A stretch of 20,000 nt of DNA, from IMG/VR virus record IMGVR_UViG_3300020190_000040; one strand, written 5' to 3'. Positions 2,981 through 15,947 of the stretch are shown in pieces. The notes under the pieces were generated by a model that saw nothing but the letters and a program-made list of their open reading frames with translations, had not been told where the DNA came from and did not search any database. How positions within the stretch are numbered: position 1 is the stretch's first letter; each line of letters opens with the position of its first letter. The translations under genes were made by a program, and so were the position numbers. This stretch comes from an uncultured virus (IMG/VR IMGVR_UViG_3300020190_000040) (Duplodnaviria; Heunggongvirae; Uroviricota; Caudoviricetes; Kyanoviridae).

Positions 2981-3220
2981 TTACCACTCCACTCGTGATC
3001 CAGGTACGTTTTTCATTTTGTTCATAATTTCAGTCCATCCAGGGTGAGTTTTGTTCATTTTGTTTCGCCAATCTCCAACTTCACCAACACCAGCAACACC
3101 AGCAGTCCAATCTTTATCCCATTCGGGGTTATCTTTTCTCCACTGTTCATACTCTACCATCGACATGTAGAGTTCTTTCTTTTCTCCAGTCTCTTTATTT
3201 ACAATAGGATATGTAGGCAT
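2981..3220 (-). CDS. Conserved cyanophage hypothetical protein
   Basis: MPTYPIVNKETGEKKELYMSM...WRKDNPEWDKDW. ATG at 3220 overlaps the thyX stop (TAATG). Confidence 0.8.
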   Translation of the reverse strand: MPTYPIVNKETGEKKELYMSMVEYEQWRKDNPEWDKDWTAGVAGVGEVGDWRNKMNKTHPGWTEIMNKMKNVPGSRVEW

Positions 3221-3876
3221 TAGTTCCACTCCAAAGCTTCGGCACAAATAGGGAATTGTTCAATGAATACTTCACGACAAGCATTAGCAATGATCATATG
3301 TTCTTTTTGAGTACCATGAGCACTCCGTAAATCTATATAGTGTATCCACGACCTTACTGATCCTGTCATATAGATTTTTGTTGGGGTTGCCAATGGAAGC
3401 ACAAACCTAGCACATTCCTTTGCTACTCCCTGATTCAGAAGACGATTATAAAGTTGTTGTGCTTTAGCAAAGTGTTCTTGAATTTCAGTTTCAAGAACAA
3501 GTTTCAGATAACCATCAAGGTCATCGGTAGAATTTTGACGGTTCTTTGTATCCTGACGACGAAGTTCAGGAATAGGAATATACTGAGAAAGAAGATTGGT
3601 ATCGGCATATCGTTGTGAAAATTCTTGATATGTAAACGAACGGTGGCGTAAAATTTGAGCAGCAATACCACGATTAGTTTCAATCTCTAGTGTCATATGT
3701 GCTTGCTCAAATACAGACCAATGATTATGTTTGATACAATACTTGAGCAGACCAGCAACGTTAGGGTTCTCCTGGTTCTGGGGATTGCTCACCCTCGCTA
3801 CGTACCCCATTGTCTGTTCCGCTTGTGGGGTCACTGAGATCAGTGTCACTGGTGATTTCTGATTCGATTGGGGCAT
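3220..3876 (-). CDS. thyX: Flavin-dependent thymidylate synthase
   Basis: HWSVFEQ, RHRSFTYQEFSQRY ThyX motif, AKECARFVLP, RSWIHYIDLR. Start uncertain (3876 or 3912). Confidence 0.96.
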   Translation of the reverse strand: MPQSNQKSPVTLISVTPQAEQTMGYVARVSNPQNQENPNVAGLLKYCIKHNHWSVFEQAHMTLEIETNRGIAAQILRHRSFTYQEFSQRYADTNLLSQYIPIPELRRQDTKNRQNSTDDLDGYLKLVLETEIQEHFAKAQQLYNRLLNQGVAKECARFVLPLATPTKIYMTGSVRSWIHYIDLRSAHGTQKEHMIIANACREVFIEQFPICAEALEWN

Positions 3877-4072
3877 AGTTGTATCCAAATCCTCGGTATG
3901 CTTTTTCGTCATTAATAATACGCTCTCTCAGTTTTTTGATATCACGGTATTGTTTTTTAGCCTTGTGATATGTTTCATCATCAAGACCGATTGGGTTATC
4001 AAGCAATCGTTTAATATTTTTTGATAAGTTTTTTAAGGTTGCCGAACGTTTAAATGATAACATTTGATTCAT
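3761..4072 (-). CDS. Hypothetical protein overlapping the thyX 5' end
   Basis: 103-aa ORF directly after a consensus promoter (4088-4116). Basic helical N-terminal part; the C-terminal tail overlaps thyX. Confidence 0.6.
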   Translation of the reverse strand: MNQMLSFKRSATLKNLSKNIKRLLDNPIGLDDETYHKAKKQYRDIKKLRERIINDEKAYRGFGYNYAPIESEITSDTDLSDPTSGTDNGVRSEGEQSPEPGEP

Positions 4073-4219: not shown

Positions 4220-4317
4220 TATTTTGCTCCCACTAGTTGTGCTAGTTGTGCTTGATAACGACGCTCCTCTTTTTGCTTTTGTTCCTTAATCAATTGTAGG
4301 AAGTTAAGTTTTTTCAT
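4219..4317 (-). CDS. Small basic peptide (32 aa)
   Basis: MKKLNFLQLIKEQKQKEERRYQAQLAQLVGAK. ATGA-coupled, with GGAGG upstream. Confidence 0.65.
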   Translation of the reverse strand: MKKLNFLQLIKEQKQKEERRYQAQLAQLVGAK

Positions 4318-4475
4318 TGCTTTTCCTCCCAGTTCCAATTGTTACATGGACGATAGGAAATACCACGATACTTATTTGGTGGATGAGATGGAGCATGTGT
4401 TTCTGAATACCACTTACGATATTCTAGTTTCGGAATGTGAGTATTATACTTCACACCACGATAGGTTGCTGTCAT
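4314..4475 (-). CDS. DUF4278-like small protein (53 aa)
   Basis: MTATYRGVKYNTHIPKLEYRKWYSETHAPSHPPNKYRGISYRPCNNWNWEEKQ. Two YRGxxY motifs; ATGA-coupled. Confidence 0.75.
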   Translation of the reverse strand: MTATYRGVKYNTHIPKLEYRKWYSETHAPSHPPNKYRGISYRPCNNWNWEEKQ

Positions 4476-4612
4476 CCCTTGGTCCCCTCTTTTACAAATT
4501 TGACCCCACGATAGGTCTCATTGTATTGTTGAGGTTGTTGTTGCATTTGCTGTTGATAAGCGATACGCTTTTCGGTATCGTATTCAACGCCACGGTATAC
4601 GACTTTCGACAT
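4472..4612 (-). CDS. DUF4278-like small protein (46 aa)
   Basis: MSKVVYRGVEYDTEKRIAYQQQMQQQPQQYNETYRGVKFVKEGTKG. Two YRG motifs; strong SD (AAGGAG). Confidence 0.8.
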   Translation of the reverse strand: MSKVVYRGVEYDTEKRIAYQQQMQQQPQQYNETYRGVKFVKEGTKG

Positions 4613-4644
4613 TAGGTTTCTCCTTAGTTGTTCAGGTTAAAGAG

Positions 4645-4816
4645 CGTTCCTTCAGTCGGCTTTTGCGTCTATGAATTTACAGGTCTTTGGCGAGTGTTCT
4701 ATATAAATTTGAACGAGCTCTTCCTTTACATTGTTCGGCACTTTTGAAATGCGAACATTATTAATAAGTTTCTGAGCTTCTACACACGACCAGAGAATGA
4801 TTTCCATAGATGAACG
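4645..4816 (-). ncRNA. Glutamine riboswitch aptamer 2 (glnA class) with a large P2 insertion
   Basis: CGUUCA-UCUAUG...[~130 nt]...CAUAGA-CGCAAAAGCCGACUGAAGGAACG. P1 is CGUUC/GAACG and P2 is UCUAUG/CAUAGA. Confidence 0.75.
4652..4807 (-). CDS. 51-aa ORF embedded in glutamine aptamer 2
   Basis: MEIILWSCVEAQKLINNVRISKVPNNVKEELVQIYIEHSPKTCKFIDAKAD*. AUG lies in the P2 5' strand and the stop lies in the aptamer 3' core. Confidence 0.65.
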   Translation of the reverse strand: MEIILWSCVEAQKLINNVRISKVPNNVKEELVQIYIEHSPKTCKFIDAKAD

Positions 4817-4819
4817 ATC

Positions 4820-4870
4820 CGTTCCGAGTCGGCTTACTTCCGTTCGCTATTCGGAAATAGCGAATGAACG
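4820..4870 (-). ncRNA. Glutamine riboswitch aptamer 1 (glnA class)
   Basis: CGUUCA-UUCGCUAUU-UCCG-AAUAGCGAA-CGGAAGUAAG-CCGACUC-GGAACG. P1, a perfect 9-bp P2 and the GGAAGUAAG junction typical of the glnA motif. Confidence 0.85.
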
Positions 4871-4893
4871 TTTATTATATATCTATTTAATTT

Positions 4894-4908
4894 TGTAGTG
4901 AGTGATAC
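4894..4908. promoter_or_regulatory. Putative NtcA binding site
   Basis: TGTA-GTGAGTGA-TAC matches GTA-N8-TAC. It lies 15 nt upstream of a minus-strand TATAAT (4874-4879) and of the aptamers. Confidence 0.6.
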
Positions 4909-5246
4909 TATCTATCAACATAATCCAAGGTAAAGTCCTTGGCTTTAAGTTGTTCTATTATTATATCACATCCAATTTTAGGTTCACATTCACCACAGGT
5001 AAAAATATCTGCTGCTGCTTTCCCTTCTTCTGGCCAAGTATGAATGCTAATGTGACTTTCAGAAAGTAAACTAACTACAGTAACGCCTTGTGGATCAAAC
5101 TTCTCATAGATTGTTTGTAAGACCCGAGCGCCCGCAGCTTCAGCAGCATTTTCTAGCAAGTCACAAAGAAAAAATTCATTATTCAATGAAGAAAATGGAC
5201 ATCCATACAAACTTAACAAGTAGTGTCTACCCAGTCTTTCCATCAA
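4908..5246 (-). CDS. speD: S-adenosylmethionine decarboxylase proenzyme (pyruvoyl-dependent)
   Basis: GRHYL, FDPQGVT, LLSESHISIHTWPE (E-S self-cleavage site), ADIFTCG. Confidence 0.93.
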   Translation of the reverse strand: MMERLGRHYLLSLYGCPFSSLNNEFFLCDLLENAAEAAGARVLQTIYEKFDPQGVTVVSLLSESHISIHTWPEEGKAAADIFTCGECEPKIGCDIIIEQLKAKDFTLDYVDR

Positions 5247-13527: not shown

Positions 13528-13599
13528 AGCGGAGTATCGGAATCGAACCGACGACATCTAACTTGGAAGGATAGCGTTCTACCGCTGAACTAACTCCGC
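13528..13599 (-). tRNA. tRNA-Gly(TCC)
   Basis: GCGGAGT acceptor stem, anticodon loop CTTCCAA, GGTTCGATT T-loop. No encoded CCA. Confidence 0.95.
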
Positions 13600-13621: not shown

Positions 13622-13945
13622 TGAGCAGGCTCGCCACCAACTTTGGTACGAGAAAGTTGGAAACTCGGCGGGAGTATACCTCCATCCGCACCAGCAGGCT
13701 TAACCCTTATCCTGCGGGGTTACAGTAACTTTGACTAGTCTAAAGTACTCTTCATATATTTTATCTTTAAGAAAATCAAGGTACTTGATGTCTTCTTCCC
13801 AAGTAGTTAACTGCTCCAAAATTGCCATAGCATTTTCGATTTGGTTACCACATGAAAGAAGTCTTAAAGAGTTGTATTTCGGATCATAGTTTGTCATAAC
13901 TACCAGGGGGTCCCGACCAGGGCAAGTTTAAAGTCATTCCGAGAC
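13622..13945 (-). ncRNA. manA-like structured RNA interrupted by an ORF
   Basis: 5' block GUCUCGGAAUGAC...CCCUGGUCGGGA. 3' block UGGUGCGGAUGGAG..CUCCCGCCGAG...GUGGCGAGCCUG. Two hairpin/pseudoknot units. Adjacent to a tRNA. Family recognised from memory, not by a covariance-model search. Confidence 0.7.
13700..13897 (-). CDS. 65-aa hypothetical protein embedded in the manA-like RNA
   Basis: MTNYDPKYNSLRLLSCGNQIENAMAILEQL...; helical, AT-rich. Confidence 0.6.
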   Translation of the reverse strand: MTNYDPKYNSLRLLSCGNQIENAMAILEQLTTWEEDIKYLDFLKDKIYEEYFRLVKVTVTPQDKG

Positions 13946-15280: not shown

Positions 15281-15354
15281 TCGGGGTGATAGGATTCGAA
15301 CCTACGACATCCGCCTCCCAAAGACGGCGCTCTACCAAGCTGAGCTACACCCCG
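15281..15354 (-). tRNA. tRNA-Pro(TGG)
   Basis: CGGGGTG acceptor stem, anticodon loop TTTGGGA, GGTTCGAATCC. Confidence 0.95.
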
Positions 15355-15799: not shown

Positions 15800-15871
15800 T
15801 GGGCGATACTGGATTCGAACCAGTGACCATCTCCGTGTAAAGGAGGTGCGCTACCGCTGCGCTAATCGCCC
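15800..15871 (-). tRNA. tRNA-Val(TAC)
   Basis: GGGCGAT acceptor stem, anticodon loop TTTACAC, GGTTCGAATCC. Confidence 0.95.
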
Positions 15872-15874
15872 AGG

Positions 15875-15947
15875 CGACTCAGGTTGGGGTCGAACCAACG
15901 ACCGACTGCTTAGAAGGCAGTTGCTCTATCCACTGAGCTACTGAGTC
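15875..15947 (-). tRNA. tRNA-Arg(TCT)
   Basis: GACTCAG acceptor stem, anticodon loop CTTCTAA, GGTTCGACCC. 3-nt spacer to tRNA-Val. Confidence 0.95.

Follow-up and report, generated by a model that had tools for sequence, protein, structure and literature searches.

Locus and leader layout

The window analyzed here is the whole stretch of 20,000 nucleotides from an uncultured Kyanoviridae virus (IMG/VR record IMGVR_UViG_3300020190_000040). It carries speD, a gene that we take to be thyX, four tRNA genes, and a wcaG RNA, which together point to a T4-like cyanophage. Downstream of speD, a structured leader stands ahead of two short genes. The features of this neighborhood are as follows:

4908-5246: speD, upstream of the leader
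4890-4918 (-): promoter-like site, TTGATA, 17 nt, CAAAAT, 9 of 12 consensus matches, from a consensus scan
4641-4872 (-): whole candidate composite glutamine-riboswitch leader, an outer aptamer with an inner unit and the ORF within P3, from cmscan, pairing covariation, and folds
4472-4612 (-): first putatively regulated gene, DUF4278 (IF17-like), 46 aa; Pfam E 6e-4, below cut-off; phrog_5049 1.3e-12
4314-4475 (-): second DUF4278 gene, 53 aa; Pfam 28.8 bits against a cut-off of 25.3
3220-3912: presumed thyX, downstream of the leader
13623-13723 (-): wcaG RNA, 60.1 bits (cut-off 42)
13528-13599, 15281-15354, 15800-15871, and 15875-15947 (all -): four tRNA genes

The putative promoter would start the transcript ~10 nt ahead of the leader. 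The consensus scan returned 4 sites, with 4.0 expected from shuffled sequence and hence no excess, and in relatives this position holds a clearer TTGAC-17-TATAAT site. Between the two DUF4278 genes there is an overlap of ATGA (4472-4475, minus strand), with the second start on the first stop, which suggests coupled translation.

The leader is 232 nt long and all of its features are on the minus strand. They are given here from 5' to 3':

4872-4816 (-): unit 1, from the cmscan alignment to the Rfam glutamine aptamer
4866-4870 (-): outer P1, 5' strand CGUUC, partner 4645-4649, from RNAalifold on 18 unsplit relatives
4843-4864 (-): P2 hairpin of the outer aptamer (hp1), UUCGCUAUU-UCCG-AAUAGCGAA, 9 bp, from cmscan, leader fold, and covariation
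4834-4842 (-): E-loop 5' strand CGGAAGUAA, equal to the canonical 23-GAAGUAA-29 strand in the accessible text of PMC5393176, cmscan-aligned
4827-4833 (-): P3 5' strand GCCGACU, antiparallel partner 4655-4661, U4827-A4661 covarying
4812-4824 (-): inner hairpin P1', GAACG-GAU-CGUUC, from the single-sequence fold and RNAalifold, invariant
4816-4811 (-): CGUUCA, 5' half of the split second unit
4810-4805 (-): UCUAUG, whose AUG is 4807-4805
4803-4810 (-): ORF-holding hairpin, 5' strand UCUAUGGA, which holds the start codon
4652-4807 (-): nested gene, 51 codons and UGA, phrog_504 superfamily, a predicted small two-helix protein with conserved Cys8 and Cys43
4673-4645 (-): CAUAGA-CGCAAAAGCCGACUGAAGGAACG, 3' half of the split second unit
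4668-4675 (-): ORF-holding hairpin, 3' strand UUCAUAGA, coding part of ..K-F-I-D
4661-4667 (-): inner junction CGCAAAA, in place of CGGAAGUAA in the inner unit, coding part of D-A-K
4655-4661 (-): P3 3' strand AGCCGAC, coding part of K-A-D
4650-4654 (-): E-loop 3' strand UGAAG, canonical 50-UGAAGC-55 in the same partly accessible source; UGA 4654-4652 is the ORF stop
4645-4649 (-): outer P1, 3' strand GAACG, from pairing tests and RNAalifold
4620-4644 (-): expression platform, anti-SD CUCUUUA 4644-4638 paired with SD UAAGGAG 4626-4620, from folds

According to the accessible text of PMC6212724, DUF4278 marks IF17-like glutamine synthetase inhibitors, and the type-1 glutamine riboswitch is a translational ON switch in which sequence adjacent to P1 keeps the ribosome-binding site masked as long as no glutamine is bound. 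The leader in the window likewise stands upstream of a DUF4278/IF17-like gene and has an SD-masking sequence beside P1. In the leader fold the anti-SD adjoins outer P1 and pairs with the SD. Among the matches listed, pairing of the SD with the 12 nt that follow P1 is seen in all 24 distinct tails of the window's type, and in only 40 of 75 marine 'G-start' tails. Taken by itself, the anti-SD hairpin is unremarkable (z -1.11; 28 of 200 shuffles fold as well).

The nested ORF and its relatives

IMG/VR was searched with a pattern in which the 3' core is fixed, and at least 120 loci were returned. From the matches listed, 124 leaders were parsed (IMG/VR loci, three named phages, and the window), and counts of leaders are counts of sequences rather than of independent events. 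The split at the second hairpin is present in 87 of these listed leaders and absent from 32, and the other 5 are cut off. Among named phages, the window is closest to DSL-LC02, DSL-LC03, S-SRM01, and S-CREM1, which come from freshwater and estuaries; the first three share the split, with ORFs of 50-55 codons, and S-CREM1 has the same leader without the insert. Cellular genomes gave 8 matches to the core pattern in 185,579 species genomes, all of them on MAG or single-cell contigs, and the core variant is almost only found on viral contigs. A search of sequencing runs returned small shares only (0.05-0.07 of sampled words). In three runs (X2, X3, X10) the contigs, at 80% likeness, span the conserved cores only. 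In a fourth, X5, whose library may hold DNA, a 343-nt contig from a relative matches 4562-4673 and 4802-4863, and the equally long sequence between these two segments is diverged. The contigs from these runs show neither ends nor strand.

A sequence-only reading of this DNA had proposed that CGUUCA-UCUAUG and CAUAGA are the two halves of an aptamer split around a 51-aa ORF, and that the ORF reads through the aptamer's 3' core. Both proposals held on the minus strand, with the halves at 4816-4805 and 4673-4645. The ORF ends ..IDAKAD-UGA, and its last six codons and UGA are drawn from the stem 3' strand, the junction, P3, and the E-loop. In the 87 listed split leaders, the AUG invariably lies 9-11 nt past CGUUCA and the nested ORF is 49-66 codons long and always in frame. 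It runs in frame into the core and ends at the core UGA in 85 of the 87; the two exceptions (L056 and L117) stop at a TAA or TAG just ahead of the core.

The same reading had suggested frame conservation and a dN/dS-type comparison as checks, and these came out in favor of translation. Every one of the 83 distinct inserts among the matches listed is open in the ORF frame, and each of the other five frames contains stops in 64-83 of the 83. For 219 equal-length pairs that were 70-99% identical, pN/pS was 0.25 in the ORF frame versus 0.84 and 1.95 in the shifted frames. Variability across codon positions was 0.34, 0.22, and 0.47, being highest at the third and lowest at the second. Because the position of the ORF is kept in 87 of the 124 listed leaders and pN/pS is low specifically in its frame, the nested ORF is, as judged by sequence comparison, a real gene under protein-level selection. 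No Shine-Dalgarno sequence was found ahead of it. The genome records of DSL-LC02, S-SRM01, and P-SSM2 list the ORF as a CDS.

In the family alignment, Cys8 and Cys43 are invariant or nearly so, and the N-terminus ahead of them is hydrophobic and variable in length. The window ORF matches phrog_504 with an E-value of 8e-4 (20.1 bits; residues 7-49 align to positions 11-52 of the 53-position profile), and 8 of the 9 other second-hairpin ORFs that were scanned match the same profile (E 3.3e-4 to 2e-17), the one without a match being that of L001. A profile of the nested-protein family retrieved 312 cluster representatives. The AlphaFold model is a two-helix hairpin (pLDDT 82.8). No Pfam family was matched by the nested protein, the best Foldseek hit against the PDB had an E-value of 2.7, and the ESM Atlas returned viral hypothetical clusters only, at 0.77. 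Longer family members, such as L104:42-245, have a signal-peptide-like start (MTKALLLLGWVPLL..) ahead of the first conserved Cys, and for these export and a disulphide are possible; the window protein has only 7 residues ahead of that Cys. Among five further members (P0118, P0122, P0034, P0045, and P0056), some use a different frame in the core (tail ..ETQKPTEGT) and others read through it, which indicates that the DAKAD tail is not required by the protein. The called product P0045 spans the nested ORF into the DUF4278 gene.

The ORF is closed by a stem of 8 bp, with one G-U, between UCUAUGGA (4810-4803) and UUCAUAGA (4675-4668), which is present in the unconstrained minimum-free-energy fold of the whole leader. 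At least five contiguous closing pairs occur in 85 of the 87 listed split leaders. Covariation of this stem, another check that had been proposed, was observed at helix positions 3-5, with variants such as UCUAU/AUAGA, UCCCA/UGGGA, UCCUUA/UAAGGA, and UCCUCA/UGAGGA. Over 41 distinct strand pairs among the matches listed, the mean contiguous helix length was 5.93, versus 3.93 +/- 0.21 when the 3' strands were shuffled among loci, and none of 2000 shuffles reached 5.93. The AUG had been placed inside this P2 stem, and it is: at least one of its bases lies within the contiguous helix in 84 of the 87 listed split leaders, and all three do in 35.

In relatives, ORFs of the same superfamily (phrog_6471, phrog_13397), with 61-73 codons, also occur in the first hairpin, and these often end ..GRK-UAA, with the UAA supplied by the E-loop strand GGAAGUAAG. 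Carriers include L027, L022, L026, L045, L049, L018, L034, and L046. The first hairpin of the window (4843-4864) is a plain 9-bp stem. Among the matches listed, the 124 leaders were distributed as follows:

First hairpin short, second with ORF: 59 of 124 listed leaders, window included
First hairpin short, second short: 17 of 124 listed leaders
First hairpin with ORF, second with ORF: at least 15 of 124 listed leaders
First hairpin with ORF, second short: 14 of 124 listed leaders
First hairpin long with its 5' end outside the available sequence, second with ORF: 13 of 124 listed leaders
Unit 1 core outside the available sequence, second hairpin unscored: 6 of 124 listed leaders

The layout of the window recurs in the ocean phage P-SSM2 (L125, 487-636), where the nested ORF carries the annotation 'predicted protein'. 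The P-SSM2 core reads GAC-UAA-AGG in place of GAC-UGA-AGG, which keeps a stop at the same position and alters the E-loop strand.

This distribution bears on whether the ORF and the sensor are linked at all. The nested genes could instead be passengers, a mobile family of small genes that has colonized insertion-tolerant hairpin loops and rides a strong promoter, with the RNA folding whenever ribosomes are absent and with no regulatory link between ORF and sensor. Such a neutral cassette is a serious rival, although on balance we regard it as unlikely. It would account for the way in which presence or absence of the ORF differs among close relatives, as tabulated above and as seen in the insert-free leader of S-CREM1, and for the occurrence of a single protein subfamily in either hairpin (L090 versus L011 and L064). 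The conserved cores could act as homology arms for such exchange, and the C-terminal tail of the nested protein is dispensable. Against it, the ORF fills the loop exactly, from an AUG at a fixed distance with 1-3 bases in the stem (84 of 87 listed) to a stop codon in the core (85 of 87 listed), and P-SSM2 keeps its UAA at that same core position. Compaction of phage genomes could also give a tight fit of this kind, so the fit is not decisive against a passenger.

Interlocked architecture of the leader

The second unit had been described as a self-contained aptamer, and here the sequence-only reading did not hold up. In the accessible text of PMC5393176, the canonical aptamer runs in the order P1, P2, GAAGUAA, P3, UGAAG, P1, with GAAGUAA and UGAAG forming an E-loop across P3. 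In the window, GGAAGUAA is present in unit 1 only and UGAAG in unit 2 only. Both E-loop strands (4842-4834 and 4654-4650) are thus there, and they flank P3 only if the two units are interlocked; that the motif forms is a prediction. With this topology, CGUUC 4816-4812 pairs with the GAACG just upstream (4824-4820), and GAACG 4649-4645 pairs with the first CGUUC (4870-4866).

The two GCCGAC segments would then be the strands of one P3, and they covary. The base after the first GCCGAC is complementary to the base before the second in all 118 parsable leaders among the matches listed, as U-A in 90, A-U in 24, G-C in 2, and U-G in 2; in 18 unsplit listed leaders, this end pair is AU in 12, UA in 5, and GC in 1. 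Where the GCCGAC of unit 1 has changed to GACAAC or GCCAAC, the partner strand in unit 2 reads GUUGAC or GCUGAC. Covariation between the two segments, together with E-loop strands that lie in different units, indicates that the two "tandem aptamers" are an interlocked double unit, with one canonical outer aptamer at 4872-4641, a permuted inner unit within P3, and the ORF in the inner P2.

Across the 18 insert-free leaders among the matches listed, 92.9% of cells were paired in the interlocked structure, compared to 85.5 +/- 0.6 in shuffled alignments (0 of 500 as high), and sliding the structure along the alignment gave at most 55.7%. For P3, 74.4% of cells pair, with two A.C mismatches. RNAalifold, run without a given structure, returned the outer and inner P1 helices and did not predict P3. 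Both hairpins are supported by changes on both sides of a pair among relatives (3 of 4 aligned pairs in hp1, 3 of 5 in hp2). The loop of the inner hairpin P1' differs in length between relatives. In L093, 24 nt separate GGAACG and CGUUCA versus the usual 3-6 nt, which fits a hairpin loop or a linker of free length.

The older picture, in which two independent aptamers lie side by side and the second (4816-4645) is split by the ORF and closed by its own P1 (4816-4812 with 4649-4645), now appears improbable. The published glnA alignment handles the phage units as separate adjacent aptamers (supplement file 5 of PMC2864571, a source accessible in part). The P1 strands CGUUC and GAACG are each present twice with identical sequence, which makes either pairing possible, and since all pairs of both P1 helices are invariant, covariation cannot separate nested from side-by-side P1 pairing. 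RNAalifold, however, pairs the outermost two strands and so gives the nested topology, and neither unit alone has both E-loop strands. The covarying bases, complementary in all 118 listed leaders, lie in different units, and the mini-P3 partners that each separate aptamer would need (A34-N42 and N89-U96 in alignment A3) would be broken in the A-U and G-C classes.

Detection by covariance models

It had been suggested that standard covariance-model searches may miss a split aptamer, and they do. Rfam at its gathering threshold found no glutamine aptamer (RF01739) in the window: unit 1, at 34.1 bits, falls just short of the cut-off of 35, and unit 2 yields only a 19.8-bit alignment (E 0.16) at 4717-4641, which uses an internal CGUUCA at 4715-4710 and which we consider spurious. 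For a second covariance model, R1, the interlocked structure was imposed on 18 unsplit leaders. R1 fails to bridge the 131-nt insert as well, giving separate matches at 4872-4772 (26.3 bits) and 4717-4642 (15.4 bits). A further R1 match on the plus strand, at 2475-2531 (E 0.26), was taken as chance, there being no Rfam glutamine match at that place.

These lower-scoring alignments, from cmscan (19.8 bits) and from R1 (15.4 bits), could be read as a compact second aptamer built from the internal CGUUCA and the 3' core, with the ORF overlapping it only partly. We consider this highly improbable, given that only 1 of the 87 listed split leaders, the window itself, has an internal CGUUCA, that its nearest relatives L027, L047, and L122 lack one, and that the alignment leaves CAUAGA unexplained. 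It is equally hard to believe that the insert is a non-coding structured RNA with an incidental open frame: the whole leader does fold somewhat better than shuffles (z -2.39; 3 of 200 equal), but the frame-specific pN/pS, the codon-position pattern, the single open frame in all 83 listed inserts, and the nearly invariant cysteines all argue against it.

Discussion

Positions 4872-4641 on the minus strand are probably the leader of a small cyanophage operon encoding two IF17-like DUF4278 proteins, a type-1 glutamine riboswitch of two interlocked units in which the inner stem closes round a real 51-codon gene. The AUG, the closing stem, P3, the E-loop 3' strand, and outer P1 all lie within or beside the ORF, which suggests that a translating ribosome on the ORF and a folded sensor could not co-exist on one mRNA. 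Ribosomes may load on the ORF while it is being transcribed, before the 3' strand exists. Once the ORF is cleared of ribosomes, the sensor would close and the AUG would be hidden. By analogy with the gifB leader, bound glutamine would free the SD (4626-4620) from the anti-SD (4644-4638), and the DUF4278 genes would be translated. A ribosome terminating at UGA 4654-4652 might also cover or melt outer P1 and the anti-SD, which could open the SD and activate the downstream gene. The sequence-only reading had envisaged that the nested ORF and the DUF4278 gene might be expressed in a mutually exclusive way; this is accordingly one of two possibilities, as the link between them could be coupling or exclusion.

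A more speculative possibility is a ribosome-gated riboswitch, in which glutamine level and translation of one or two nested genes are merged in a single RNA fold. Production of the small Cys proteins and of the IF17-like inhibitors might in that case follow a fixed sequence or be reciprocal, depending on the nitrogen state of the host, and the aptamer cores may double as recombination arms that shuffle nested genes between hairpins.

Riboswitch aptamers are usually treated as non-coding, compact, and free of ribosomes. The predicted ligand-binding fold described here must form across ~150 nt of translated sequence, sharing its start-proximal stem and its core with codons. Because these nucleotides are shared, translation and aptamer folding can be tested directly against one another on a single mRNA. 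The locus further illustrates how riboswitches come to be under-counted in covariance-model scans, and several PHROG families without an assigned function gain a context from it. With IF17-like proteins as the products of the operon, the layout is relevant to how cyanophages sense the nitrogen status of the host and reset it. Many related phages have this layout, as do much-studied ocean phages such as P-SSM2.

Comparison with known systems

The closest known system is the glnA RNA (RF01739), represented by the Synechocystis gifB/IF17 leader (PMC6212724, accessible text). The phage leader shares with it the P1 strands CGUUC/GAACG, the P2 hairpin, and the E-loop strands GGAAGUAA and UGAAG with P3 between them, as well as a position ahead of DUF4278 (IF17-like) genes and an anti-SD that abuts P1. 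It differs in that P3 is formed from two distant GCCGAC segments, which enclose a permuted unit and a 51-codon gene, in its score just under the cut-off, and in a core variant that is almost confined to viral contigs.

Two glnA-like units per leader are also found in the tandem glnA RNAs (Weinberg et al. 2010, PMC2864571, accessible text) and recall tandem riboswitches such as those for glycine. The published units are separate and side by side, whereas here P3 is shared and the P1 and E-loop strands are exchanged. Four ORF start strings were absent from the published glnA alignment (PMC2864571). Our literature search found no description of a nested ORF or of an interlocked aptamer pair, including in the accessible portions of PMC2864571, PMC6212724, PMC9964418, PMC9004378, PMC9602691, PMC12379486, PMC7657543, and PMC5393176; Ames & Breaker 2011 and Ren et al. 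2015, which may bear on tandem architecture, fall outside it.

The nested ORFs belong to phrog_504, phrog_6471, and phrog_13397, families of small cyanophage proteins without an assigned function that genome records call hypothetical proteins. In the accessible literature we found nothing linking these proteins to an enclosing riboswitch.

In the trp and erm leaders, a short ORF lies within a structured leader, and the position of the ribosome decides which helices form. The leader in the window shares with leader-peptide attenuation a short ORF in a structured leader. A glutamine attenuator might be expected to carry a run of Gln codons, and none conserved across subfamilies was seen in the family alignment: the window ORF has 2 Gln among 51 residues, and a Q-x-Q motif occurs in one subfamily only. 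The nested ORF also differs from a disposable peptide in encoding a conserved family, with purifying selection in its frame and 312 cluster representatives, and the structure with which its translation would compete is a predicted ligand-binding aptamer.
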